DNA from: Saprospiraceae bacterium
Lineage (GTDB): Bacteria; Bacteroidota; Bacteroidia; Chitinophagales; Saprospiraceae
Reading direction: 5' to 3'
Length of the DNA: 64,000 nt
NCBI GenBank assembly: GCA_041749255.1
Contig: JBGTBR010000056.1
Coordinates: forward strand, 38,621 to 102,620
Shown: positions 4,264-63,055 of the stretch, in pieces
How the letters are laid out: each line of letters starts with the position of its first letter
Position numbering within the stretch: position 1 is the stretch's first letter
Made by a program: the position numbers and the translations under genes
Notes under the pieces: model-generated
What the model was told of the DNA's origin: nothing
What the model saw: only the letters and a program-made list of their open reading frames with translations
The model's database searches: none

Positions 4264-4333
4264 GTTATACCATCTGTAAAAGGTGATGTGAGGATGAACC
4301 ACTTCCCAAAGCCTCTTACAGCGAAATTTAAAA

Positions 4334-4420
4334 ATTACGAATTACGAATGATGCTTTAATCACAAAAAAAAATGTAAAGGACACATTATCTCGTAATTCG
4401 TAATTGATAAATCGTAATTG
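4334..4420. repeat. ATTACGA heptamer repeats forming a 14-bp inverted repeat; probable bidirectional terminator
   Basis: ATTACGAATTACGA (4334-4347) is the perfect reverse complement of TCGTAATTCGTAAT (4391-4404). A further CGTAATTG copy follows. The locus sits between the convergent sucA and beta-barrel genes. Confidence 0.6.
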
Positions 4421-4445
4421 AAAGTACTCTCTATTCTAAATGTAG

Positions 4446-10909: not shown

Positions 10910-12007
10910 ATGACAGAGGAGTTATTATATATTATTGCTTTAACAAAGGTAAAAAATGTGGGTCCCGTCACTGCCAGACAGTTAATCAGTCATTGTGGAG
11001 GTGTTAAGGAGATTTTTTCTTGCCCTGAAAAAGATATTCTCAGCATTCCGAATATAGGTCCTACCGTTTTCCGCGAACTAAAGTCATCTCACATATGGAA
11101 AGAAGCCGAAATAGAATTGCATTTTATCAATAAAAATGGTATTAGCCCACTATTCTTTCTTCAGGAAGGTTATCCCAGAAGGATGAAACAATTTGATGAT
11201 AGCCCTATCCTATTGTACTTTAAAGGAAAGGTCAATTTAAACCACTACAGAACTGTAGGCATTGTAGGAACCCGAACTCCTTCTGAATACGGTCGACTGA
11301 TGACGGAAAAAATCATAGAAGGACTCATCCCTTACAATCCGATTATAATCAGCGGAATGGCTTACGGAATTGATTCAATTGCCCATCGCAAAGCGGTTGA
11401 ATCAGGATTGGCCACCATTGGTATTTTGGGACATGGATTACATATTATGTATCCTCAATCCAATCGCGGATTAGCACAAAAAATGGTCGAAAATGGAGGT
11501 TTGATTACAGAATTTGGATGTTCCACCGGGCCGGATAAAGAAAACTTCCCGATGAGAAACAGGATTATTGCTACCATGAGTGATGCCCTGGTGGTCATTG
11601 AGTCAAAAGTAAAGGGAGGGTCTATGATCACTGCAAACTTTGCTAATCAATACTATAAAGATGTTTTTGCAGTACCGGGCAAAACGGATGATGAAAAATC
11701 GACTGGATGTAACAGGCTAATAAAAATACATAAAGCCGCTCTTATAGAATCCGCAGAAGATATTGTGTACATTATGAGGTGGGAACAACTGGATACTGAA
11801 AGAAGCAACCAAACTTCTTTATTTGTGGAATTAGATGATACTGAACAAAAAATCATTCAACTACTTAGGGAGAATAAAGAAATGACCATTGATACCTTAC
11901 ATTATAAATTGGACATGACCGTTTCGGAAGTTTCGGCTCTGTTGCTAAAGATGGAGTTTAAAGGGATCATATCCAGTTTGCCTGGAAAGAGATATGTCGC
12001 AAGCTGA
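10910..12007 (+). CDS. dprA: DNA-processing protein DprA
   Basis: VGIVGTRTPSEYG, SGMAYGIDSIAHRKA and GGSMITA motifs; 365 aa. Confidence 0.9.
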   Translation: MTEELLYIIALTKVKNVGPVTARQLISHCGGVKEIFSCPEKDILSIPNIGPTVFRELKSSHIWKEAEIELHFINKNGISPLFFLQEGYPRRMKQFDDSPILLYFKGKVNLNHYRTVGIVGTRTPSEYGRLMTEKIIEGLIPYNPIIISGMAYGIDSIAHRKAVESGLATIGILGHGLHIMYPQSNRGLAQKMVENGGLITEFGCSTGPDKENFPMRNRIIATMSDALVVIESKVKGGSMITANFANQYYKDVFAVPGKTDDEKSTGCNRLIKIHKAALIESAEDIVYIMRWEQLDTERSNQTSLFVELDDTEQKIIQLLRENKEMTIDTLHYKLDMTVSEVSALLLKMEFKGIISSLPGKRYVAS

Positions 12008-26447: not shown

Positions 26448-27725
26448 ATGAATCCACCTTTAGCGGAAAGAATGCGGCCAACCACTCTCAATGAATTTGA
26501 AGGGCAACAGCATCTTACCGGTGAAGGATCGGTACTCAAAAAAACTATTGAGAATGGTAATATTCCTTCCTTTATATTGTGGGGACCTCCAGGCGTAGGA
26601 AAAACCACTCTGGCATTTATCATCTCTCAGACCTTAAAGAGACCTTTCTATAGCCTGAGTGCGATCAATTCCGGTGTAAAAGATATAAGAGAAGCCATAG
26701 ATAAAGCCAAAAAACAGCAATTTTTTAACCGCCCCAATCCGATTTTATTTATAGATGAGATACACCGGTTTAGTAAATCACAACAGGATGCCCTGTTGGG
26801 GGCAGTAGAAAAAGGCATTATCACTCTAATTGGTGCAACAACAGAAAATCCATCTTTTGAAGTCATACCAGCTCTATTATCGAGATGCCAGGTATATATC
26901 ATGAATCCTTTAAGTGTCGAGGAACTTATACGCTTAGTAAATAAAGCCATTAAAACGGATGATGAGTTTAAAAACAGAAATATTACCATTGAATCCTATA
27001 AAGCACTTATCAGGTTTTCAGGTGGAGATGCAAGAAAACTGCTCAACAGCCTGGAGATAGTGGCAAGAAAGAATTTGGCTTCAGATCCATTGGTCATAAC
27101 TGACGAAATGGTCCAGGAGAGTATACAGCAAAATATGGCCTTATACGACAAGGCCGGTGAACAGCATTACGATATCATCTCAGCATTTATAAAATCCATA
27201 AGAGGATCAGATCCTAATGCTGCAGTCTATTATCTTGCCAGGATGATTGAAGGAGGAGAAGACCCTCGCTTTATATGTCGTAGAATGGTTATTTCCGCAT
27301 CTGAGGACATCGGTATGGCTAATCCTAATGCTCTCTTGTTGGCCAATGCATGTTTTGATGCCGTTCATAATATAGGTATGCCTGAAGGTCGTATCGTTAT
27401 GAGCCAGGTCGCCATTTATCTTGCTTGCTCCCCAAAAAGCAATACATCATATATAGCCATTAATGAAGCAGTCAATTCAGTTAAAAAAACCGGAAACCTA
27501 CCTGTTCCCCTCCATTTAAGAAATGCCCCAACGCAGCTTATGAAGTCTCTTGATTATGGAAAAGACTACCAATATGCCCATGATTTTACCCATAATTTTG
27601 TCGACATGGAAATGCTGCCCAAAGAAATTTCTGGTAGCGCTTTCTACCATCCTGGAAAGAATAATGCTGAAGATAATATTAGGGAAAGGTTAAAAAGTTT
27701 ATGGAAAGAAAAATACGGGTACTAA
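26448..27725 (+). CDS. rarA: Replication-associated recombination protein A (AAA+ ATPase)
   Basis: [34 protein letters not shown] and [18 protein letters not shown] motifs. Confidence 0.93.
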
Positions 27726-27881: not shown

Positions 27882-28022
27882 GTCATTGGCTTCGCGTCAT
27901 TTGGCTACGCCGCCATTTGCTCTATTCCGTCATTTGCGCTACGCGCGTAATCTTGTTATGAATGGATCCTATTGCCAACTGCATACTGCATACTGCCCAC
28001 TGTCAATGCCAACTGTATACTG
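27882..28022 (+). repeat. Core A copy 1 (conserved non-repetitive core plus flanking GTCATT and CTGCATA repeats)
   Basis: Contains GCTACGCGCGTAATCTTGTTATGAATGGATCCTATTGCCAACTGCATACTGC, which differs from copy 2 at about 4 positions by eye. Confidence 0.85.
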
Positions 28023-28424
28023 TTACCAGCTACGAGATTCGACCTTAATAGGTCTGAAAGTCGAAGGTCTGAAAGTCGAAGGTCTGAAAGTCGGAAGGTC
28101 TGAAAGTCTGAAAGTCGGAAGGTCTGAAAGTCTGAAAGTCGGAAGGTCTGAAAGTCTGAAAGTCGGAAAATTGAAAATTGAAAATTGAAAATTGAAAATT
28201 GAAACTTGAAACTTAACAAAAACAAAAACTAAAACCAAAACAAAAACCAAAACTAAAACCAAAACAAAAACAAAAACAAAAACAAAAACTAAAACTAAAA
28301 CTAAAACTAAAACCATTTGCAACCAGCTACGAGCTATGAGCTAAAATGGTGTGAAAGTCGAAGATCTGAAAGTCTTAAGGTCGAGGTTAAGGATAAGGTT
28401 GAGATTGAGGTTGAGGTTGAGAAG

Positions 28425-28555
28425 GTCATTTGCTGCGCGTCATTGGGCTTCGTCGTCATTTGCGCTACGCGCGTTATTTTGTTATGAAAGGAACCTATTG
28501 CCAACTGCATACTGCCAACTGCATACTGCCCACTGCTAACTGCCAACTGCATACT
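28425..28555 (+). repeat. Core A copy 2
   Basis: Contains GCTACGCGCGTTATTTTGTTATGAAAGGAACCTATTGCCAACTGCATACTGC. Confidence 0.85.
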
Positions 28556-28791: not shown

Positions 28792-29934
28792 ATGAGCCCG
28801 GAAGTATTGGAAAATCTTGACATGATCACAAAGAGCGCAAAAGAATTTGCGGAAAAAGAAATTCTACCTTACGTAATGGAATGGGATGAATCACAGTATT
28901 TTCCAAAAGAACTTATGCATAAAATGGGAGATTTTGGATTTTTAGGTGCGTTGGTACCAGAAGAATATGGAGGAACGGGATTAGGCTATCAGGAATACGT
29001 GTCTATTATAGTTGAAATTGCAAAGGTTTGCGGCTCCATTGGTTTATCGGTAGCAGCGCATAATTCTCTTTGTACCGGACATATCCTTGCATTTGGTAAT
29101 GAAGATCAAAAAAGAAAATACTTGCCACTTCTCGCAGCCGGAAAATGGATCGGAGCGTGGGGATTGACTGAGGCCAATACCGGATCTGATGCTATGCGGA
29201 TGAGTTGTGTTGGTGAAAAGGATGGAGAATATTTTGTCATTAATGGATCAAAAAACTGGATTACACATGGCATATCAGGTGATGTAGCTGTAGTGTTAGT
29301 GCGAACCGGAGAATTACTGGATAGTCGGGGTATTTCAGCTTTTATTATAGAAAGAGACACCCCTGGTTTCAAAGCAGGTAAGAAAGAGAATAAACTGGGA
29401 ATGCGCGCATCTGAAACATCTGAAATGATTTTTGAAAACTGCCGTGTTCACAAATCCCAAATGCTGGGGAATGAAGGAGAAGGTTTTATTCAGGCAATGA
29501 AAGTACTGGATGGTGGTCGTATCAGTATTGCTGCACTATCCATTGGCATTGCCAAAGGAGCATATGAAGCTTCGGTACGATACGCACAGCAAAGAGAACA
29601 GTTCGGAAAACCTATTGCCAGTTTCCAGGCCATTTCATTCAAACTTGCCGATATGGCTACGAAAATCCAGGCCGCTGAACTTCTCACCCGGAAAGCTGCC
29701 GATATGAAAAACGAAAAAGAAGATGTCACTACCCAAAGTGCCATGGCTAAGTATTACGCTTCTGAAATCTGTGTAGAAATAGCTACTGACGCCATTCAGG
29801 TATTTGGAGGCTATGGTTATACCAAGGAGTTTCCAGTAGAGAAATACTTTAGAGATTCAAAACTTTGTACCATCGGCGAAGGTACCAGTGAAATACAGAA
29901 ACTTGTTATTTCGAGAAATATTTTAAGAGAATAG
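28792..29934 (+). CDS. Acyl-CoA dehydrogenase
   Basis: 380 aa. GAWGLTEANTGSDA, QFGKPIASFQA and GGYGYTKEFPVEKYFRDSK motifs are present. Confidence 0.9.
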   Translation: MSPEVLENLDMITKSAKEFAEKEILPYVMEWDESQYFPKELMHKMGDFGFLGALVPEEYGGTGLGYQEYVSIIVEIAKVCGSIGLSVAAHNSLCTGHILAFGNEDQKRKYLPLLAAGKWIGAWGLTEANTGSDAMRMSCVGEKDGEYFVINGSKNWITHGISGDVAVVLVRTGELLDSRGISAFIIERDTPGFKAGKKENKLGMRASETSEMIFENCRVHKSQMLGNEGEGFIQAMKVLDGGRISIAALSIGIAKGAYEASVRYAQQREQFGKPIASFQAISFKLADMATKIQAAELLTRKAADMKNEKEDVTTQSAMAKYYASEICVEIATDAIQVFGGYGYTKEFPVEKYFRDSKLCTIGEGTSEIQKLVISRNILRE

Positions 29935-36557: not shown

Positions 36558-36641
<84 letters not shown>

Positions 36642-36806
36642 CTGAAAGTCTTCAAATAGCAAAGAAATTTATTGGGTTTTTAAGAATTTTGTAACCCTAT
36701 TCACCTTTAACAATATTCAATTGATCTTGAAGTTGGCTCAATCTCAACCTCATTTTAGCTGGTAGCTCGTATCTGGTAGCTCGTAGTGATTAGTTCGTAG
36801 CTCGTA

Positions 36807-36896
36807 GCAGTATGCAGTATGCAGTATGCAGTTGGCAATAAGTTCCTTTCATAACAAAATAACGCGCGTAGCGCAAATGACGACGAAGTCAAATGA
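36807..36896 (-). repeat. Core A copy 3 (inverted)
   Basis: The reverse complement reads GCTACGCGCGTTATTTTGTTATGAAAGGAACTTATTGCCAACTGCATACTGC, one mismatch from copy 2 by eye. Confidence 0.85.
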
Positions 36897-36956
36897 ACTC
36901 TCACCTCCTCACCTTAACTCTTGACTTTCCGACCTTCCGACTTTCAGACTTTCAGA

Positions 36957-37474
36957 CCATTTTGCTCGTAGCTCGTAGCTGGTTACAAATGGTTTTAGTT
37001 TTAGTTTTAGTTTTGGTTAATTTTCAATTTTCCGACTTCCGACTTTCAGACTTTCAGACCTTCGACCTTCAGACCTTCGACTTTCCGACTTTCGACCTTC
37101 CGACCATTTTAGCTCGTAGCTCGTAGCTGGTTGCAAATAGTTTTAGTTTTAGTTTTAGTTAATTTTCAATTTTCAATTTCCGACTTTCCGACCTTCCGAC
37201 TTTAAGACTTTCAGACCATTTTGCTCGTAGCTCGTAGCTGGTTGCAAATGGTTTTAGTTTTAGTTTTGGTTTTGGTTAATTTTCAATTTTCCGACTTTCG
37301 ACTTTCAGACTTTCGACTTTCAGACTTTCGACTTTCAGACCTTCAGGCCATTTTAGCTCGTAGATGGTAGCTCGTAGCTGGCAGCAAATGGTTTTAGTTT
37401 TAGTTTTAGTTTTGGTTTTTCATTGGTTAACTTTCAACTTTCAACTTTCGACCTTCAGACTTTCGACCTTCAGA
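36957..37474. repeat. Higher-order tandem array of four superunits (about 147, 112, 132 and 127 bp)
   Basis: Each unit starts with CCATTTT(G/A)(G)CTCGTAG..GCTGG(T/C)(T/A)(G/A)CAAATGG at 36957, 37104, 37216 and 37348. TTTTAG/TTTTGG, AATTTTC and (C/A)GACTTTC runs follow. Confidence 0.9.
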
Positions 37475-37529
37475 CCGTTTACCGTTCACTGCTCACCATT
37501 CACCGTTTTTCTACCTGCCAAAGGCGAAG
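37475..37529 (+). repeat. Module B copy 1
   Basis: CCGTTTACCGTTCACTGCTCACCATTCACCGTTTTTCTACCTGCCAAAGGCGAAG. Confidence 0.8.
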
Positions 37530-37994
37530 ACCTCAACCTTGCCTCAATCTTAGCACGTAAGACTTTCCCAGATGAGAATGAGTTAATTATATCAACCGGT
37601 CTTTACCTTTAGGATTTTGTGCATTACATTTTGGGAAACCGACTTCCTTAAATGATAAAATACCATCATATTTTCGATAAACAAAATGCATACATCCACA
37701 TGATTACATATACTTTGGATAAAAACAAAAATTTAAACCGCTTTGGTCAAATTTTAACACAGGATAAAATTAAATGATCAAACTTTTATATTAAACTATA
37801 AATCAAATATTTAAAGTCCAATATTACCTACAAAAACTTTTTCCAGCTATGTAAATAATTTCTTTCAAAAATTTTATGGGGAATTTAAAAGGCAGCGTAC
37901 CGGATAAATAATAAGTTAATATTAAACGTCCCAGTTTCAACTGGGTCCGTTGATGCAAAATTTTATTCAATCACTCAATTTTAAATTTAACCAG

Positions 37995-40900
37995 ATGATC
38001 AGAAAAAGTTTGGGAAAAGTTATTTTCCTGCTGTTTTTTGCAACGCAAATGGTTTTTGCCCAGCAAAAAACCATTACAGGAAAGGTAACCGATTCTACCG
38101 GTGAACCTTTGATCGGAGCCAACGTATCAGTACAAGGTACAACACGCGGCTCTATTACAGATATTGACGGGATGTATACCATCCAGGCAGAAGCATTAGA
38201 AGTATTGGTCTTTTCTTACCTTGGGTATCAGGAGGTAAGTATGGTTGTAGTTGGGGAAACTTCAATTATGAATATCCAAATGGAAGAAGACGCCACGACT
38301 TTGGACGAAGTTATTGTTATTGCTTATGGTACTGTAAAGAAAGAATCGTTTGTAGGTTCAGCCTCTCAGATCAAATCAGAAGATTTCGAAGGCAGAGCCA
38401 TTACAAATATCTCCCAGGCTTTGGAAGGTACTGCAGCAGGTGTACAAGTAACTCCGGGCAGCGGACAACCAGGAAGTGGTCCAAACATCAGGGTCAGAGG
38501 AATTGGTTCCGTTTCTTCATCTAATGCCCCATTATATGTTGTTGATGGCGTAATATTTACCGGAAACTTAGCCAGTTTAAACCCCAATGATATAGAAAGC
38601 CTGACAGTCCTGAAAGATGCAGCTTCGACTTCACTTTATGGATCCGGTGCTTCTAATGGAGTGATCATGATCACCACGAAAAGAGGAAAAAAAGGAGTTA
38701 AAGATAGGATTACAATGAACATCAGTCACGGGGTAACGGGCAGATCGGTACCTGAATATCCAAGAGTAGGTCCGGAAGATTATTATGTACTCATGTGGGA
38801 AGCCCTCCGAAACAGTAAAGTGAGTGCGGGTATAGCTCAGGATGCCGCCAATCAGCAGGCCTCATCAGAAATTTATGGTCTTTTGGGTTACAATCCATTT
38901 TCTGTAGCCAATGATCAGATCGTTTTGCCCAATGGTGCAATAAACCCTGCCGCTTCGCTTCGTTATGGTACCCTTGACTGGCAGGATGAATTGTTCCAGG
39001 TTGGATCAAGAAGCAATGCTGACCTTTCCATATCGGGAGCTAATGACAAAACGGATTATTTTATATCAATGGGTTACCTTAATGAGGAAGCTTATGTGAT
39101 CAATTCTGATTTTGAGCGTTTTACAACCAGGATCAGTGCCAATTCCAGAGTTAAAGATTGGTTAAGAACGGGTTTGAACATTGCAGGATCATATTCTGAT
39201 TCAAGGCAAGCAGTAGATGGAGCTGCAAGTTCAGCATCTTTTGTCAATCCATTCAGAACTACCAGAGTAATCGGGTCTATATATCCGGTTTACCTGCACG
39301 ACCCTATGACTGGTCAACTTATATTAGATGATAATGGCAATAGGATTTTCGATTCAGGAGATCTTTTTGAAATAAGAGGCCCAGGAGCATCACCAGGCAG
39401 ACATCCCATTCAGGAAAACTTATTAAATATTGATCGCGATAAAGTCCTGAATTTAAATACCAGAACATTTGCAGAGATATCATTTCTCACCAATTTTAAG
39501 TTTACAACGAATCTTGGTTTTGATAGAAGATATTTCAACAACGAACGTCTTCAAAATGCCATAATAGGTGACGCTGCTCCATCGGGCAGAGGGTTTAGAA
39601 CCAATACGGTTACCACTGGGATCAACCTAAATCAGCTGTTGGAATACAATAATAATTTCGGAAAACACAATTTGGGATTATTGGTAGGGCACGAAAGTTT
39701 TTCCTATGAATTCAATTCATTGACCGGTACCCGACAAGATCAGGTTATTGAGGGAAATACAGAATTGATCAACTTTGTCAATATCACCAATCTCAACTCT
39801 TTCACCAGAGAATTAAGAAGAGAGGGATTTTTCAGCCGTCTTAATTATAACTGGGACAATAAGTACTTTTTGTCAGGTTCTGTGAGAAGGGATGGGTCGT
39901 CAAGGTTTGCCCCAGATGTCAGATGGGGAACTTTCTGGTCAGTGGGTGGAGCCTGGAGAATTATAGAAGAATCGTGGTTTGATAATATGAGATGGCTCAA
40001 TGACTTAAAACTAAGAGCATCTTATGGACAAGTTGGAAATGACTCCAATTTAAGCCACGGAGACCTATCATTTTTTGCTTTTCAACCTTTAGCTAGTTTG
40101 GGATTCAATAATGCCGCTGAAGCAGGGGCAGTGTTAAGCTCAGCCGGAAACAGAGCCTTAACCTGGGAGTCAAATAACCAGTTTGACGTGGCTGTTGAAT
40201 TTTCATTATTCAGCAATAGGATCTCGGGTTCTGTGGAATATTATTGGAGAGAATCTGACGGCTTAATTTTTGATGTTCCTCTACCTGTATCTTCCGGATT
40301 GGATAATGTATCGGAAAACATAGGAGCCATGTTCAATAGAGGTATTGAACTTTTTATCAATGCAGATGTAGTAAGAAGCAGGGATTTTATCTGGAATGTA
40401 AACTTCAATGCTTCTACGCTGACCAATAGAATAACTAAGTTGCCTCAGGAAGAAATTATAACGGGAACCAAGAAATTGGTAGTAGGAAGTTCCATCTTCG
40501 AATATTGGTTAAGAGAATGGTATGGTGTAGATCCTACTGATGGTTCAGCTCTTTACATTCCCACACCAGACGCTATTGAAACTGGAGGTTCTGATATCAG
40601 AGAAGTCAATGGAATACAGGTTACAACAAATCAAAATAACGCTGAATTCAATTTTGTAGGCACAGCCGTTCCGGATCTGTTTGGTGGTATAGGAACTTCA
40701 CTTCAATACAAAGGTTTCAGGGTAAATGCTTTGGTAACTTACCAAATTGGTGGGTTGACATACGATAGTAATTTTTCTTCTTTAATGGATGCTGGTGATT
40801 ATGGTCGTGCACTCAGTACAGAAATGCTGAACAGATGGCAACAACCGGGAGATGTAACAGATGTTCCCAGGATGGATGCAAGTGCAAGACCTCAGATCAA

Positions 40901-41153
40901 TGCTGCTTCTTCCAGATGGTTGGTAGGATCTGATTTCCTTGCTTTCAGACAATTGGGATTATCGTACAGCATACCTAACAATACTGCCAGAGATTGGGGA
41001 ATCGAGGGCTTGAGATTCAATATCAATGCTGAAAATATTTTCGCTTTGACACAAAGAGATGGTTTAGAACCATCACAGAACTTTAATGGTACTACACAAA
41101 ACAGATTTACTCCAGCCAGGATTCTTTCAGTAGGGGCAAGTTTAGTTTTTTAA
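37995..41153 (+). CDS. SusC/RagA-family TonB-dependent outer-membrane receptor
   Basis: A signal peptide starts at the ATG at 37995. It has a carboxypeptidase-regulatory-like N-domain (ITGKVTDSTGEPLIGANVSVQGT), a plug domain, and the C-terminal residue F. Confidence 0.93.
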   Translation: MIRKSLGKVIFLLFFATQMVFAQQKTITGKVTDSTGEPLIGANVSVQGTTRGSITDIDGMYTIQAEALEVLVFSYLGYQEVSMVVVGETSIMNIQMEEDATTLDEVIVIAYGTVKKESFVGSASQIKSEDFEGRAITNISQALEGTAAGVQVTPGSGQPGSGPNIRVRGIGSVSSSNAPLYVVDGVIFTGNLASLNPNDIESLTVLKDAASTSLYGSGASNGVIMITTKRGKKGVKDRITMNISHGVTGRSVPEYPRVGPEDYYVLMWEALRNSKVSAGIAQDAANQQASSEIYGLLGYNPFSVANDQIVLPNGAINPAASLRYGTLDWQDELFQVGSRSNADLSISGANDKTDYFISMGYLNEEAYVINSDFERFTTRISANSRVKDWLRTGLNIAGSYSDSRQAVDGAASSASFVNPFRTTRVIGSIYPVYLHDPMTGQLILDDNGNRIFDSGDLFEIRGPGASPGRHPIQENLLNIDRDKVLNLNTRTFAEISFLTNFKFTTNLGFDRRYFNNERLQNAIIGDAAPSGRGFRTNTVTTGINLNQLLEYNNNFGKHNLGLLVGHESFSYEFNSLTGTRQDQVIEGNTELINFVNITNLNSFTRELRREGFFSRLNYNWDNKYFLSGSVRRDGSSRFAPDVRWGTFWSVGGAWRIIEESWFDNMRWLNDLKLRASYGQVGNDSNLSHGDLSFFAFQPLASLGFNNAAEAGAVLSSAGNRALTWESNNQFDVAVEFSLFSNRISGSVEYYWRESDGLIFDVPLPVSSGLDNVSENIGAMFNRGIELFINADVVRSRDFIWNVNFNASTLTNRITKLPQEEIITGTKKLVVGSSIFEYWLREWYGVDPTDGSALYIPTPDAIETGGSDIREVNGIQVTTNQNNAEFNFVGTAVPDLFGGIGTSLQYKGFRVNALVTYQIGGLTYDSNFSSLMDAGDYGRALSTEMLNRWQQPGDVTDVPRMDASARPQINAASSRWLVGSDFLAFRQLGLSYSIPNNTARDWGIEGLRFNINAENIFALTQRDGLEPSQNFNGTTQNRFTPARILSVGASLVF

Positions 41154-41171
41154 ATTTAAAAAATAATAACA

Positions 41172-42656
41172 ATGAAGAAATTAATAATAAAGCCATTTTT
41201 AATTATAGGATTATTTGTCCTGTTTTCCTGTGGGGACGACTTCTTGGAAACTCTACCTACAGAGGATATTTCCTCTGCTTCCATTACAGCTACTACAGGA
41301 AACTTGTTACTGGGTATCAATGGAATTCATCGATCCTTGTATGTTCGTTACAGTTCTCAAGGTGAAGGAGGAGTTGGAGGTGTTATGATCACCATGGATG
41401 TTATGGGAGAAGATTTTGTCATGACTTCCGCAGGTAATGGATGGTATAACTCTGAATATCAATGGAATACTCATACTAATGCCAATGCTGCCAGAACTTT
41501 GTATCCATACCGTATTTATTATAGATTTATAAGAAATGCCAATGTACTCATCAACGGTGCAGATGATGCAGAAGGCCCTCAAACCATTAAAAATATGGTC
41601 AAAGGACAGGCTCTGGTGTATAGGGCATTTTGTCACTTCCAACTGGTACAATTATACGGTAGTCGTTATGTTGCGGGTAGTCAAAATAACCAACCGGGTA
41701 TTCCTATCAGACTTATTGACGACAATGAAACACTTGCCCGTTCGTCAGTAGAAGAAGTATATGCCCAAATTCATGCAGACCTCGATGAAGCTATTCAATT
41801 GTTGGCCGGGTATGAAAGACCCAATAAGTCCCATTTGGATCAAAGCGTAGCCCAAGGCATAAAAGCCAGAGTAGCACTGGTGCAAGGAAATTATCAAATG
41901 GCTATTCAGCAGGCTCAAATTGCACGACAGGGTTATCAGTTAATGACTAATGATGAGTATGTTTCTGGCTTTAATGATTACAACAACAGAGAATGGATGT
42001 GGGGAAGCCATATGCAGGAAGATCAGACATTATTCTTTGCTAATTTTGGAGCTTATGTATCAAGGAATTTCAATTCCACGAATATCCGTACAAACCCAAA
42101 GGCAATTTTTAGTGTCCTTTATGATCAACTACCTGAAAATGATATAAGGAGATCTCTATGGGATCCAAGTGGACAACATGGTAATCTTCCTGCCGGTGTC
42201 ACATTACCATCTAATTTTGTGAAGAGACCATACACCAGCCAAAAGTTTATCGCTGCGGGGACGGCCGATAGTCGTATGGACGTGGTATATATGAGAGCTG
42301 CTGAAATGTACCTGATCGAGGCAGAGGCAAAAGCACGTTTAGGCGACGCAGATGCAGCTCGGGTACTATTTGAATTAGTGAGTCCCAGAGATAGTGAATA
42401 TACCATGAGTACCAATACCGGACAAGCGCTCATTGATGAAATTCTTTTCTATAGAAGAATTGAACTTTGGGGCGAAGGATTCCGATGGCTGGACTTAAAA
42501 CGATTGAATCAATCTCTCGATCGCAATGGAGGAAATCATCAAGCCAATTTAATAAATAATTTATTTGATGTACCTGCAGGAGATAATCGATGGACTTATC
42601 AAATTCCTCAAGACGAGATCAATAATAATCCACTTGTCGAGCAAAACCCTCAATAA
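41172..42656 (+). CDS. SusD/RagB-family nutrient-binding lipoprotein
   Basis: Lipobox LFSCGDDFLE and motifs YRRIELWGEGFRWLDLKR. It starts 18 nt after susC. Confidence 0.92.
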   Translation: MKKLIIKPFLIIGLFVLFSCGDDFLETLPTEDISSASITATTGNLLLGINGIHRSLYVRYSSQGEGGVGGVMITMDVMGEDFVMTSAGNGWYNSEYQWNTHTNANAARTLYPYRIYYRFIRNANVLINGADDAEGPQTIKNMVKGQALVYRAFCHFQLVQLYGSRYVAGSQNNQPGIPIRLIDDNETLARSSVEEVYAQIHADLDEAIQLLAGYERPNKSHLDQSVAQGIKARVALVQGNYQMAIQQAQIARQGYQLMTNDEYVSGFNDYNNREWMWGSHMQEDQTLFFANFGAYVSRNFNSTNIRTNPKAIFSVLYDQLPENDIRRSLWDPSGQHGNLPAGVTLPSNFVKRPYTSQKFIAAGTADSRMDVVYMRAAEMYLIEAEAKARLGDADAARVLFELVSPRDSEYTMSTNTGQALIDEILFYRRIELWGEGFRWLDLKRLNQSLDRNGGNHQANLINNLFDVPAGDNRWTYQIPQDEINNNPLVEQNPQ

Positions 42657-42699
42657 GGAATCTTGTATTTTGATCAAACCCGTATTTTACGGTAAAAAT

Positions 42700-42737
42700 A
42701 AAAGCCACCTATATTAACCAGGTGGCTTTTATTTTTT
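42700..42737 (+). terminator. Intrinsic terminator after the susCD pair
   Basis: AAAAGCCACCT (42700-42710) pairs with AGGTGGCTTTT (42720-42730), followed by ATTTTTT. Confidence 0.75.
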
Positions 42738-42985
42738 AAATTGGATTAATCAAGCCTTCAAAAGTCGTGTCTCTGATATGTGCCAATTACTCATTTGATG
42801 TCGTCCTTATCTCAACAGGTAAGTACTTCTTCATTTGGATTCCCTGTTCTTCTTAATATTCCCACCAAAGGAGTATATTGTCTTCAGTTTCCCAATGATG
42901 ATCCAGGGTCATCTACTTGTGCCTTCAATTCCTGATGATATTTTCTCATTAGGGTATTGGAGATAGAAATACAAAACAAATTTAT

Positions 42986-44107
42986 ATGATAAAAATACAA
43001 AGCCTGGTTCTCGTATATTTAGTATATGGTGTAGCAGGTATAAGTATAATCGGACAAGAAAATATTGCGAATACAGGTATCAGCGGTGTTTATGAAGTGG
43101 TTCTGGCTGTTGACGATATCGACTATGCCAGGGCATATTGGAATGAATTTGGGTTCAGGGTAGTAGATACTGCTATTGTTGATGCAGACCAGGCTTTGTT
43201 GCTATACAATGTGAACAGCCGGCTGTACAGTTACAGGTTGCAAAATGGTAATATCGATAGTCATGGATTGTTGCGACTTATAAAATGGGAAACATCATTA
43301 GGTCGGGGTGTAGGTTATACCACGCCGGAGGCCATCGGTTCAAGAATGTCTGTGATGAAGACACAGGATATTATGAGACTCTACGATGTATATAGTTTTT
43401 TACGAAGTCAGGGTCAGAAATGGCTACCTACAGAGCCCATTACATACGATTTATTCGGATTAAACGATGGTGGTAAAGACTTCCTGAAACGACCCATATT
43501 GGTAAGAGAGTCTGCTGTGTATGGAGAAATGATCAATCATGTGTTTTTTCAACGCTACGGATATGAAATTCCAGGTTATGGCTCGATCCATCCCAACACT
43601 CCTTTAAAAACCAGTGAATTTACCCATCATGAATTTTTTATTAAGGCACCTTCATTGGATGTATTAGATTATATAAGTGAAGTTCTGGGTTTTCAACCTG
43701 AAAAGGAAGGGGTAGTACCGGAAGAATGGCGAAAAGAATCTAAAAGAGGATTTATGATGGATCCCGGATCTACTCATATGTATAAAGGATTTGTATCGCC
43801 GAATAATATTTGCGGTAAGCTGAAATTTTATTTGCTGTCGGAAATAAAGCCAGATAGATCAAAGCATCTGAGGATGGGAGAACTCGGCAATACCATGCAT
43901 ACTTTATTTGTCGCAGATATCGTCCAACTAAGAAATCTGGCTGAAAATTATCAGGGACTGACGGTAAGTTCTATCCGTGCCAATGAATTTGGCGAACAAT
44001 CTTTTACTATCCTGGATAGTGTAGGAATACTTTGGCAAATCATAGAAAAGAAAGAAACCTTGCACAAACCGGAAACAGTGCTTCGATTTGAATTTACAAA
44101 TAATTGA
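42986..44107 (+). CDS. Secreted hypothetical protein with glyoxalase/VOC-like modules
   Basis: An N-terminal hydrophobic signal, then GVYEVVLAVDDIDYARAYWNEFGFRVVD, which resembles the first beta-alpha-beta of the VOC fold. The assignment is weak. Confidence 0.4.
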   Translation: MIKIQSLVLVYLVYGVAGISIIGQENIANTGISGVYEVVLAVDDIDYARAYWNEFGFRVVDTAIVDADQALLLYNVNSRLYSYRLQNGNIDSHGLLRLIKWETSLGRGVGYTTPEAIGSRMSVMKTQDIMRLYDVYSFLRSQGQKWLPTEPITYDLFGLNDGGKDFLKRPILVRESAVYGEMINHVFFQRYGYEIPGYGSIHPNTPLKTSEFTHHEFFIKAPSLDVLDYISEVLGFQPEKEGVVPEEWRKESKRGFMMDPGSTHMYKGFVSPNNICGKLKFYLLSEIKPDRSKHLRMGELGNTMHTLFVADIVQLRNLAENYQGLTVSSIRANEFGEQSFTILDSVGILWQIIEKKETLHKPETVLRFEFTNN

Positions 44108-44356: not shown

Positions 44357-44553
44357 CCCTCAACCTCATTTTAGCTAGTAGCTCGTAGTTGACAAATGAT
44401 TTTGGTTTTAGTTTTGGTTTTAGTTAACTTTCAACTTTCAAACTTTCAAACTTTCAACTTGTTCCCGACCTTCAGACTTTCCGACCTTCAGACTTTCCGA
44501 CCTTCAGACTTTCGACTTTCAGACTTTCGAATTTCAAACTTTCGACCATCTGA

Positions 44554-44632: not shown

Positions 44633-45127
44633 TCAATCCTTGCTCTTCATTTCATCATAACATATCTGTAAACGGTAAATTTCTATCGTAATATGCGAAT
44701 AAGAAATCGCACTAAATAAGGTAATGACCATGAATAAAGGCAAATTGGAATTAAGCATAGCCCAGCCGGCTGCAATAATGCAGGCGATGACTCCTCCTAT
44801 TAATAGTATCCCATTCATCTGCTGCCATGACTCCATAGATTGCAATTTTAGTTCTATGTCTCTGCTTTCAGGAATGGAATCAGAGGAAATTTCACGGCTA
44901 ATCTTATAGTACAGAAATGAATTGAACATCATAATTGCAAATCCAGCAATGATCAGATAAGGGTAGAGTGCAAAATACGTTGTTTGATTTAAAAACTTTT
45001 GAATAGCAAAGCCGATAATCAGTATGATGAGACCAGACATCAAAAAGTAAACAGATATCTTTGTACTTCCTTTCAGATACGTAACATATCTTTTCCTCCA
45101 ATCCATTTTTTCTAAAGGATCCATCAT
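44633..45127 (-). CDS. Hypothetical four-helix membrane protein
   Basis: Four hydrophobic helices. The ATG at 45127 overlaps the acylphosphatase stop codon as ATGA, which suggests translational coupling. Confidence 0.55.
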   Translation of the reverse strand: MMDPLEKMDWRKRYVTYLKGSTKISVYFLMSGLIILIIGFAIQKFLNQTTYFALYPYLIIAGFAIMMFNSFLYYKISREISSDSIPESRDIELKLQSMESWQQMNGILLIGGVIACIIAAGWAMLNSNLPLFMVITLFSAISYSHITIEIYRLQICYDEMKSKD

Positions 45128-45396
45128 CGTTTTATTTCGAATGAGGTTGGAATTACGCTCATATCCCAATTATCGATCTGTACCTCAGCTACCAGGGATG
45201 CCGGTGATCCGGAATGACACCATTTTACCATCTTGCGTACAGCTTCACTCTCTCCGGCAACGTATACTTTTACGCTACCATCGGGTAAATTCATTACATA
45301 ACCGGTCAAGCCAAGCTCCAATGCCTTTTCCCGGGTGTAATGCCTGAAAGCTACTCCCTGCACTCGTCCTGAAATCCGCAATTGTACTTTATTCAT
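45124..45396 (-). CDS. acyP: Acylphosphatase
   Basis: 90 aa. RISGRVQGVAFRHYT and GYVMNLPDGSV motifs are present. Confidence 0.88.
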   Translation of the reverse strand: MNKVQLRISGRVQGVAFRHYTREKALELGLTGYVMNLPDGSVKVYVAGESEAVRKMVKWCHSGSPASLVAEVQIDNWDMSVIPTSFEIKR

Positions 45397-57005: not shown

Positions 57006-57137
57006 CAATTTTAGTCCTACACCAATTCACCCCACATAGTTCCCTTCTATTGTATGGGTATACGAATTCTCACTTTCCCGCTTTCCATAGGAACCTTTCC
57101 AATTATTTTAAACATTATTATTTTTAAACGCGGAAAT

Positions 57138-57695
57138 ATGGAAGAGGATATCACATCAAAGGATTTGAAAGAAATGCTCAGTGAATTGATAAAGAGCCAA
57201 AAAGAAACTGACGTCAAATTCAAAGAAACTGATGTCAAATTTAAGGAAACAGATAAAAGAATAAAAGAGGCATTTGATTTATTCACCTCTCAATGGGGAA
57301 AGTTAATAGAATCATTGGTGGAAGGTGACCTCCTCCGGCTGTTGAATGAAAGGGGAATTTATGTGAGAGATACTTCTCTTAGAAGAAAAGGCAGCCATAA
57401 TGGTCATAACTACGAATTTGATATCATTGCACACAATGTAAGGGAAGTCGTCATTGTGGAGGTCAAAACCACATTAAGGGTTAGTCAGGTTAAGCACTTT
57501 TTAAAAAAGCTTCAGAGCATTAAAAAATGGATAAGAGAATACGAAAACTTCAAAATTTACGGTGCTGTAGCTTTCCTAACTGCTGAAGAAGCCAGCGATC
57601 TGTTTGCTGAAAAAAATGGATTATTTATTATCAAAGCAACCGGAGATTCCGCTAGCATTATTAATAAGAACGATTTTGTACCCTATGTATTTTAA
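57138..57695 (+). CDS. Coiled-coil plus PD-(D/E)XK nuclease-fold protein (DUF3782-like)
   Basis: YEFDIIAHNVREVVIVEVK gives D-x12-E-V-K. An alternative upstream ATG at 57054 would add a hydrophobic N-terminus. Confidence 0.6.
   Translation: MEEDITSKDLKEMLSELIKSQKETDVKFKETDVKFKETDKRIKEAFDLFTSQWGKLIESLVEGDLLRLLNERGIYVRDTSLRRKGSHNGHNYEFDIIAHNVREVVIVEVKTTLRVSQVKHFLKKLQSIKKWIREYENFKIYGAVAFLTAEEASDLFAEKNGLFIIKATGDSASIINKNDFVPYVF
57201..57253 (+). repeat. In-frame 21-nt tandem repeat (about 2.5 copies) encoding KETDVKF
   Basis: AAAGAAACTGACGTCAAATTC / AAAGAAACTGATGTCAAATTT / AAGGAAACAGA. Confidence 0.85.
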
Positions 57696-63009: not shown

Positions 63010-63013
63010 ACCA

Positions 63014-63055
63014 TTTTCAATTACGATTTATCAATTACGAATTACGATTTACGAG
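63014..63055. repeat. ATTACGA-type heptamer repeat patch
   Basis: TTTTCAATTACGATTTATCAATTACGAATTACGATTTACGAG overlaps the last codons of purN. Confidence 0.6.

Follow-up and report, generated by a model that had tools for sequence, protein, structure and literature searches.

How does a bacterial chromosome come to carry what looks like a miniature satellite array, and does the array stand alone? Both questions are raised by an intergenic stretch in a chromosomal segment of a Saprospiraceae bacterium (Bacteroidota; contig JBGTBR010000056.1), of which 64 kb with 37% G+C (hereafter the window) were analysed. Positions 36957-37475 of the window are four head-to-tail units, each composed of microsatellite blocks. 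A first-pass annotation had described this array as a higher-order repeat, unusual for a prokaryote, and had thought a protein-binding or structural role conceivable. The array is probably a fourfold tandem amplification of one module, beta, of a dispersed family of mosaic intergenic elements, a family that is lineage-specific and non-coding. The array DNA itself is likely to be neutral or selfish.

Architecture of the array

The four units begin exactly where the first-pass annotation had placed them, at 36957, 37104, 37216 and 37348, and measure 147, 112, 132 and 128 nt, the last running to 37475. Multiple alignment bears out the block order and variable copy number that had been described. 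Every unit opens with a junction word J, CCATTTT(A)GCTCGTAGCTCGTAGCTGGTTGCAAATGG, followed by H, (TTTTAG/TTTTGG)n, then F, (AATTTTC/AACTTTC)n, and finally G, in which (C/A)GAC(T/C)TTC is repeated n times. A search with the junction pattern GCTCGTAGYTG-N0-4-CAAATNRTTTTRG finds the array copies at 36971, 37119, 37230 and 37370 (14, 15, 14 and 22 nt past the respective CCATTTT starts) and two more elsewhere in the window, at 28307 (-) and 44381 (+), making six matches where 0.00 are expected from 100 shuffles.

All four units lie on the + strand and can be told apart. Unit 1 (36957..37103, 147 nt) has J as CCATTTTGCTCGTAGCTCGTAGCTGGTTACAAATGG, four hexamers, two AATTTTC heptamers and about 72 nt of GACTTTC-type units. 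The J of unit 2 (37104..37215, 112 nt) carries CCATTTTAGC and AAATAG, which breaks its closing stem. Unit 3 (37216..37347, 132 nt) is the sister of unit 1, as set out below, and unit 4 (37348..37475, 128 nt) has a 7-nt insertion in J (GTAGATG), an additional TTTTTCATTGG and an F block of the AACTTTC variant. Pairwise identity among the units is 89-99% over aligned columns, and their differences in length are nearly all whole-repeat microsatellite copy-number indels. The repeats are strongly strand-asymmetric, with an AT skew of about -0.34 across the array.

Over 36923-37476, Tandem Repeats Finder (TRF), which the first-pass annotation had proposed as a check, detects periods of 111, 140 and 259 nt (scores 361, 378 and 758) that enclose 6-, 7- and 8-nt arrays. 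The nested periodicity first described at two levels is real, and there are in fact three: 6-8, about 130 and 259 nt. Across the array's own locus and the two related loci described below, TRF finds periods of 6, 7 and 8 nt in at least seven different words.

The 259-nt period points to a duplication of two units that is recent. At an offset of 259 nt, the 133 nt of 36923-37055 are found again at 37182-37314 with 97% ungapped identity, and units 1 and 3 have in common a derived 1-nt deletion (CCATTTTGCTCG) that is seen neither in units 2 and 4 nor in the single betas of the other two loci. Units 1 and 3 are thus sister copies, 259 nt apart. Because of the near-identical block and the common deletion, the array most likely grew through duplication of a two-unit block. 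The H and F blocks clearly expand and contract: the array units have 3-4 hexamers and 2-3 heptamers, against about 16 hexamers and 7 heptamers in the single beta of locus L1. Slippage combined with unequal recombination, both of them originally suggested, is the natural reading of these copy-number differences, of the deletion common to units 1 and 3 and of the 97% block.

A dispersed mosaic family

The array had also been described as capped by an inverted core A on one side and by a module B on the other. Both caps are present as claimed (core A at 36840-36897, module B at 37476-37530). The array does not stand alone: it is a single module, expanded, of a family represented at three loci of the window. 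These mosaic intergenic loci, L1 to L3, lie within 17 kb in both orientations and are built of alpha, beta and gamma units, each with a fixed internal order. Alpha is composed of S, (TAGCTCG)n; Q, (GCAGTAT)n; core A (…CCTTTCATAACAAAATAACGCGCGTAGCGCAAATGACG…); P, (CTCAACCT)n; and G. Beta is J-H-F-G, and gamma is module B (CCGTTTACCGTTCACTGCTCACCGTTCACCGTTTTTTCGACCTGCCGAAGGCGAA) followed by P, (CTCAACCT)n.

L2 (36737-37554, +), the locus of the array, reads alpha, beta x4, gamma. Its alpha unit (36737..36956) comprises P (CTCAATCTCAACCTC, 36737-36751), S in TAGCTCG-type heptamers (36751-36806), Q as (GCAGTAT)n (36807-36839), core A, a second P (36898-36922) and G as (GACTTTCM)n (36923-36956). 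Its gamma unit (37476..37554) is module B (CGTTTACCGTTCACTGCTCACCATTCACCGTTTTTCTACCTGCCAAAGGCGAAGA) with a P tail. L1 (27755-28680, -) reads alpha, beta, alpha' and a degenerate gamma, and its single beta (28038-28349) has about 128 nt of G units besides its long H and F blocks. L3 (44123-44643, +) reads alpha, gamma, beta, gamma, with its single beta at 44368-44553. Beta thus occurs once in L1, four times in L2 and once in L3, the between-locus difference in copy number of a dispersed variable-number tandem repeat (VNTR).

Core A has four copies in the window and module B three, where none is expected of either; the L2 core A is inverted relative to the copies at 27.9 and 28.4 kb. The alpha units of L2 and L3 are 82% identical over 96 nt, and the L2 gamma is 70-85% identical to the two gammas of L3. 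Identity between loci matches identity within the array, beta 3 and the L1 beta, for example, being 99% identical over aligned columns. Because identity between loci is as high as within the array, the copies are related by recent descent and did not arise by independent slippage in place. As read here, the family is represented by three loci of one strain.

The window codes for housekeeping and outer-membrane functions, among them 2-oxoglutarate dehydrogenase E1, NusA, RNase R, isocitrate dehydrogenase, rarA/mgsA, acyl-CoA dehydrogenase, a SusC/SusD pair and an RND (resistance-nodulation-division) efflux system. L1 is flanked by rarA/mgsA (26448-27725) and by the gene for acyl-CoA dehydrogenase (28792-29934). 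The neighbours of the array are MarR, SusC and SusD. To the left of L2 and outside the element is tRNA-Leu(CAG) (36558..36642, +; found by ARAGORN and by Rfam at 55.2 bits), and the array begins 314 nt downstream of it, close to the 300 nt first estimated. L3 lies between a gene of 373 aa (42986-44107) and a convergent gene of 178 aa (44633-45169). L2 and L3, in direct orientation, bracket SusC-SusD and the 373-aa gene (37995-44107), a block that would be excised if the two loci recombined.

Logan short-read contigs of this strain extend 3.2 kb beyond the window (L092). To the right of the window, L092 ends (L092 1-40, about window coordinate 67150-67184) at AATGTTTTAGGCCTGTAAGGCCGTTTACC, in which GGCCGTTTACC is common to the start of module B and AATG-TTTTAG to the J/H junction. 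The resemblance to module B spans at most 11 nt; it could belong to the margin of a fourth locus, but is too short and is not counted as one.

Distribution among relatives

Judged by the collections searched, the family appears to be lineage-specific and new. The junction pattern has no match in 185,579 GTDB species genomes (one genome per species), and the single match among JGI metagenome contigs is ascribed to chance, since it falls within a protein-coding gene whose surroundings are free of repeats. Viral contigs contain no match to the J, core A or module B patterns, and BLAST of the L2 locus against plasmid and phage records returns none. The module words are absent from 80 related Bacteroidota loci, a few isolated chance 11-13-mers apart.

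The nearest species-level genomes are Saprospiraceae metagenome-assembled genomes (MAGs) whose RarA/MgsA is only about 71% identical, and closer relatives bear on the L1 site. In MAG GCA_964441795.1, with RarA/MgsA 89% identical, the spacer between rarA/mgsA and the acyl-CoA dehydrogenase gene measures 330 bp and lacks the mosaic; its right flank, ATAGAACTTTTTGTATTACCTTTGGTTTTT, is common with the window from 28686 onwards. In two relatives that are closer still (RarA/MgsA 96% and 94%), the contigs end 41 and 118 nt past the stop codon. These ends lie in TTAAGGATAAGGA / (AGGTTGAGGTTA)n, which is P-block sequence oriented as it is in L1. Since P-like arrays also occur in unrelated Bacteroidota, these two relatives show an array at the site, not the whole mosaic.

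For L2 no close orthologue was found, the protein collection containing no SusD above 82% and no MarR above 74% identity. The relative with the 82% SusD has tRNA-Leu(CAG), five genes and then SusC-SusD, and no short-period array in 21 kb. The relatives compared (L088, L089 and L090) have no such arrays, and their gene order differs from that of the window. All three mosaic loci sit where gene order or spacing departs from that of relatives. Around tRNA-Leu, SusC/SusD and GTP cyclohydrolase I, the gene order departs from that of L088 and L090 exactly at L2/L3.

Coding, RNA and mobility tests

Several element classes can be set aside. No real open reading frame (ORF) crosses L2; those found are 41-82 aa long and of low complexity, and a coding repeat protein is rejected on this ground. 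A structured non-coding RNA is likewise rejected: the tRNA is the sole match in Rfam 15 scans (gathering threshold, E<=1), and neither strand of the 520-nt array is predicted to fold better than dinucleotide-shuffled sequence (z +0.81 and +1.19). A scan limited to sigma-70-type promoter sites gives no convincing promoter or terminator in the beta array. A Bacteroidetes promoter consensus in core A was dropped because by eye its spacing is wrong.

No inverted pair is found at the ends of L1, L2 or L3, and a MITE (miniature inverted-repeat transposable element) with terminal inverted repeats is rejected accordingly. A Pfam scan of the 30 longer ORFs of the window finds no transposase, integrase, reverse-transcriptase or cas domain and no REP-associated tyrosine transposase (RAYT), and Pfam marks on the Logan gene calls, which span 16.4-44.3 kb and 57.8-63.0 kb of the window, include none of these either. 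The archaeal Holliday-junction resolvase Hjc domain (PF01870) is weakly matched by a 213-aa ORF at 57054-57695 (E 4.9e-6, 26.8 bits).

The layout also recalls a repeat-spacer array, a likeness that the first-pass annotation had called superficial. That judgement stands: like a CRISPR, the locus presents a partly palindromic word of about 35 nt at regular intervals, but the simple repeats that fill its intervals of 76-111 nt do not change from unit to unit, and no cas genes lie nearby. A CRISPR-like array is rejected on these features, the absence of cas genes applying to the scanned ORFs.

Comparison with described repeat systems

Cyanobacterial repeats of the short tandemly repeated repetitive (STRR) type are of the same general kind as the blocks described here, the long simple sequence repeats (LSSR/STRR). 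Groups of several heptamer arrays in intergenic regions are reported from Gramella forsetii, Aequorivita sublithincola and Elizabethkingia anophelis (PMC4679880; MacGregor, 2015), and such assemblages are also reported from cyanobacteria. In the Bacteroidetes cases, close relatives that share the gene neighbourhood lack the assemblages, and draft contigs break off within them (PMC4679880). Prokaryotes at large have an excess of heptanucleotide repeats (Mrazek et al., 2007, as cited in PMC4679880). In the loci of the window, likewise, different 6-8-nt arrays stand side by side in long intergenic regions, nearly identical assemblages recur at different loci, close relatives lack them and draft contigs end there. 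Stated generally, they consist of adjacent arrays of 5-11-nt units in non-coding DNA and are missing at the orthologous L1 site of the 89% relative. What sets the window loci apart is that their grammar is fixed and uses unique linkers (J, core A and module B) and that one composite module is itself tandem, with 130- and 259-nt periods; no word equals TAACTGA.

BrickBuilt, a MITE of Porphyromonas gingivalis with an internal minisatellite, is species-restricted, intergenic and multi-copy, and has a leader-bricks-tail layout in which the number of bricks varies (PMC4596501). The family described here is likewise intergenic and multi-copy in a member of the Bacteroidota, and L2 presents a leader-like alpha, beta bricks and a tail-like gamma. 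The bricks of BrickBuilt are, however, plain 23-nt repeats and its ends small inverted repeats, whereas the bricks here are mosaics of 112-147 nt (306 nt in L1) without inverted ends, and the order of units varies between loci.

The remaining comparisons, with VNTRs of the MIRU type (mycobacterial interspersed repetitive units), with bacterial interspersed mosaic elements (BIME) and BOX elements and with eukaryotic satellites, concern functional or architectural analogues, not relatives. In Mycobacterium tuberculosis, MIRUs are tandem units some 50-100 nt long that lie between genes and vary in copy number by locus and strain, and the present family resembles them as a dispersed intergenic tandem family with copy number differing between loci. 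MIRUs are not built of microsatellites, lie within operons in one orientation and may carry short ORFs, and none of these features is found here. Modules of repetitive extragenic palindromic (REP) and BOX elements are stable imperfect palindromes, and REPs form inverted pairs linked to RAYT transposases. The BIME/REP elements of enterobacteria and the BOX elements of pneumococci have a comparable intergenic grammar, with a few module types combined in varied order and number, and BIME-2 and boxB amplify an inner module in tandem. Here, unlike in REP and BOX, the array is no more structured than its shuffles, J is a weak hairpin only and the window has no RAYT. Higher-order satellites of eukaryotes have the same nested periods and duplicated dimer, and are also shaped by slippage and unequal crossing-over; they extend over kb to Mb in centromeric or heterochromatic contexts, in contrast to the four units in 0.5 kb found here.

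The annotated claim of a feature unusual for a prokaryote holds in part. The underlying phenomenon, intergenic DNA assembled from microsatellites, is little studied but already known, since heptamer assemblages have been reported in Bacteroidetes and cyanobacteria; the family itself is new to the collections searched. To our knowledge, no prokaryote has been described in which periodicity at three levels goes together with a fixed grammar of modules.

Proposed origin and alternative explanations

The family is assembled from 6-8-nt microsatellite blocks joined by the short unique linkers J, core A and module B, and replication slippage would alter the block lengths. Unequal homologous recombination, or slipped realignment of adjacent betas, may have produced a dimer that was later duplicated, so that the array would have passed from beta to beta-beta' and then to that dimer twice. 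Between loci, copies might spread and be homogenised through recombination, gene conversion or some trans-acting activity. Side effects would include polymorphism of the VNTR type, substrates for rearrangement and breaks in short-read assemblies.

Several observations weigh against neutral or selfish DNA of this origin. The count of four units rests on one assembly and is not confirmed by a second. At the one empty site available for comparison, the L1 site of the 89% relative, no target-site duplication or clean insertion boundary is found, the site being occupied by about 220 bp of unrelated DNA. J forms a weak recurrent hairpin (CCATTT/AAATGG stem, dG -3.4 to -7.6 kcal/mol, z about -2 to -3.5 in five of the six copies), with one compensatory change in L3 (TCATTT/AAATGA) and a broken stem in beta 2; the hairpin with its compensatory change is a hint, not proof. 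The opposite strand of core A has a small GC hairpin (GCGC-TAC-GCGC) followed by TTATTTTGTT, an arrangement that resembles a terminator. This hairpin lies at 36863-36875 (-) in L2 and at 27930-27960 and 28455-28490 (+) in L1; it is oriented to end the transcript of the neighbouring gene in L1 and L3, and is the wrong way round in L2. Together, the J and core A hairpins could reflect selection beyond pure neutrality.

The number of units bears on whether the array could be an assembly artefact, the true locus having fewer or more beta units or the units being chained from other loci. The only other assembly of the strain (Logan SRR28170463), 100% identical over 26 kb, breaks at 36586, within tRNA-Leu, and resumes at 37482, just past the beta array; its contigs also end at 27910 and 28501 in L1, at 44336 in L3 and at 63044 in an element of AATTACG repeats, and repeat families are the main cause of assembly fragmentation in the window. 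The four units are nevertheless mutually distinct in substitutions, in an insertion and in block lengths, and these mutual differences argue against a simple collapsed or looped artefact. Single betas with unique flanks at two other loci show that the unit itself is genuine. An artefact is considered very improbable. Movement of a non-autonomous mobile element is a better candidate, if still unlikely: an enzyme encoded elsewhere would move a whole MITE, BrickBuilt-like or BIME-like element made of an alpha leader, beta bricks and a gamma tail. The family is indeed dispersed, always intergenic, found in both orientations and highly identical between loci. L2 has exactly the layout of a leader, four bricks and a tail, a relative offers an empty site, and BrickBuilt provides a precedent in the Bacteroidota (PMC4596501). 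Terminal inverted repeats are lacking, however, as is any transposase or RAYT in the 64-kb window, and the comparison with the one empty site reveals replacement, with no target-site duplication and no clean insertion. The order of units also differs from locus to locus (alpha-beta-alpha'-gamma', alpha-beta4-gamma and alpha-gamma-beta-gamma), and so the moving unit is not a fixed element. A more far-reaching proposal, which we regard as doubtful, is that the loci represent an undescribed class of self-propagating microsatellite-mosaic elements in a Saprospiraceae lineage. Lacking inverted ends, its modular alpha, beta and gamma units would spread by self-copying from one intergenic site to another, build up higher-order repeats resembling satellites and serve as recombination substrates by which gene blocks are reshuffled. 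The hints behind it are the bracketing of SusC-SusD and the 373-aa gene by L2 and L3 and the position of the loci where gene order or spacing departs from that of relatives.

Functional explanations fare less well. A cis-acting array that binds protein or structures the nucleoid, whether as an insulator or regulatory platform upstream of SusC/SusD or as a BIME-like binding site for nucleoid proteins or gyrase, would fit the repetition of short words and of a partly palindromic J at about 130-nt spacing, the position of the array 520-1040 nt upstream of the SusC start (37995) and the direct orientation in which L2 and L3 bracket the SusC-SusD block. Yet the length of J varies from 32 to 43 nt, with a stem of 6-8 bp and a variable distance from CCATTT to AAATGG, and one copy has a broken half-site. 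All J copies within a locus are direct, and their variable length makes them a poor fit to a rigid site for a dimeric protein. Many binding specificities would be needed for the microsatellite words, of which there are at least seven, L1 lies in the opposite orientation between two housekeeping genes, and relatives in which the same genes are kept lack the elements. Nothing was found in support of the protein-binding or structural role that the first-pass annotation had entertained, and we consider it improbable. A transcribed non-coding RNA, whether serving an RNA-binding protein as a sponge of U/C-rich or purine-rich single-stranded motifs or yielding RNAs processed at J hairpins, is harder still to credit. 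The strand asymmetry of the repeats is strong, the sequence is predicted to be largely unstructured, and the small J hairpin has its one compensatory change. But no Rfam family matches, the sigma-70-type scan leaves the beta array without a convincing promoter or terminator, and the family is not conserved past very close relatives; L1 and L2, moreover, both lie between co-directional + strand genes and yet have opposite orientations. Fourfold amplification of beta within a dispersed, probably neutral or selfish family is the explanation that we favour.

Further repeat elements

The window has a second dispersed element based on heptamers, an inverted pair of AATTACG runs at 4333-4421 between convergent genes. 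A 31-nt word of this element, TCAATTACGATTTATCAATTACGAATTACGA, recurs at 63013-63054, again between convergent genes, and within this copy a short-read contig of the strain (L091) breaks off.

Array-armed elements occur elsewhere. In the Saprospiraceae MAG contig JAEUUT010000228.1 (L051), a near-perfect palindrome of about 135 nt (1476-1611) directly follows the stop codon of rarA/mgsA. Heptamer arrays, (AAGTCCT/GAGTCCT)n, form the two arms and enclose a palindromic core that is unique. The palindrome has another copy at a distance of 10 kb (11281-11415), and three more inverted pairs of arrays occur within the same 21 kb. In another locus (L041, 22-406), (AGAGAGTG)n and (CTCTCACT)n flank a G-rich core. 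Hairpin elements with array arms may be common in this clade, with words that differ by lineage.

Significance

The analyses made yield no evidence of a coded product or a regulatory role, and the locus opens no new functional system. The loci coincide with fragmentation of short-read assemblies in this organism and its relatives, and may mark points of gene-order change beside a polysaccharide-utilisation gene pair. If the proposed origin is correct, the family would be a ready VNTR marker for an uncultured or poorly sampled Saprospiraceae lineage, and the array a compact example, in a bacterial chromosome, of satellite-style evolution by slippage, unequal crossing-over and the formation of higher-order repeats.

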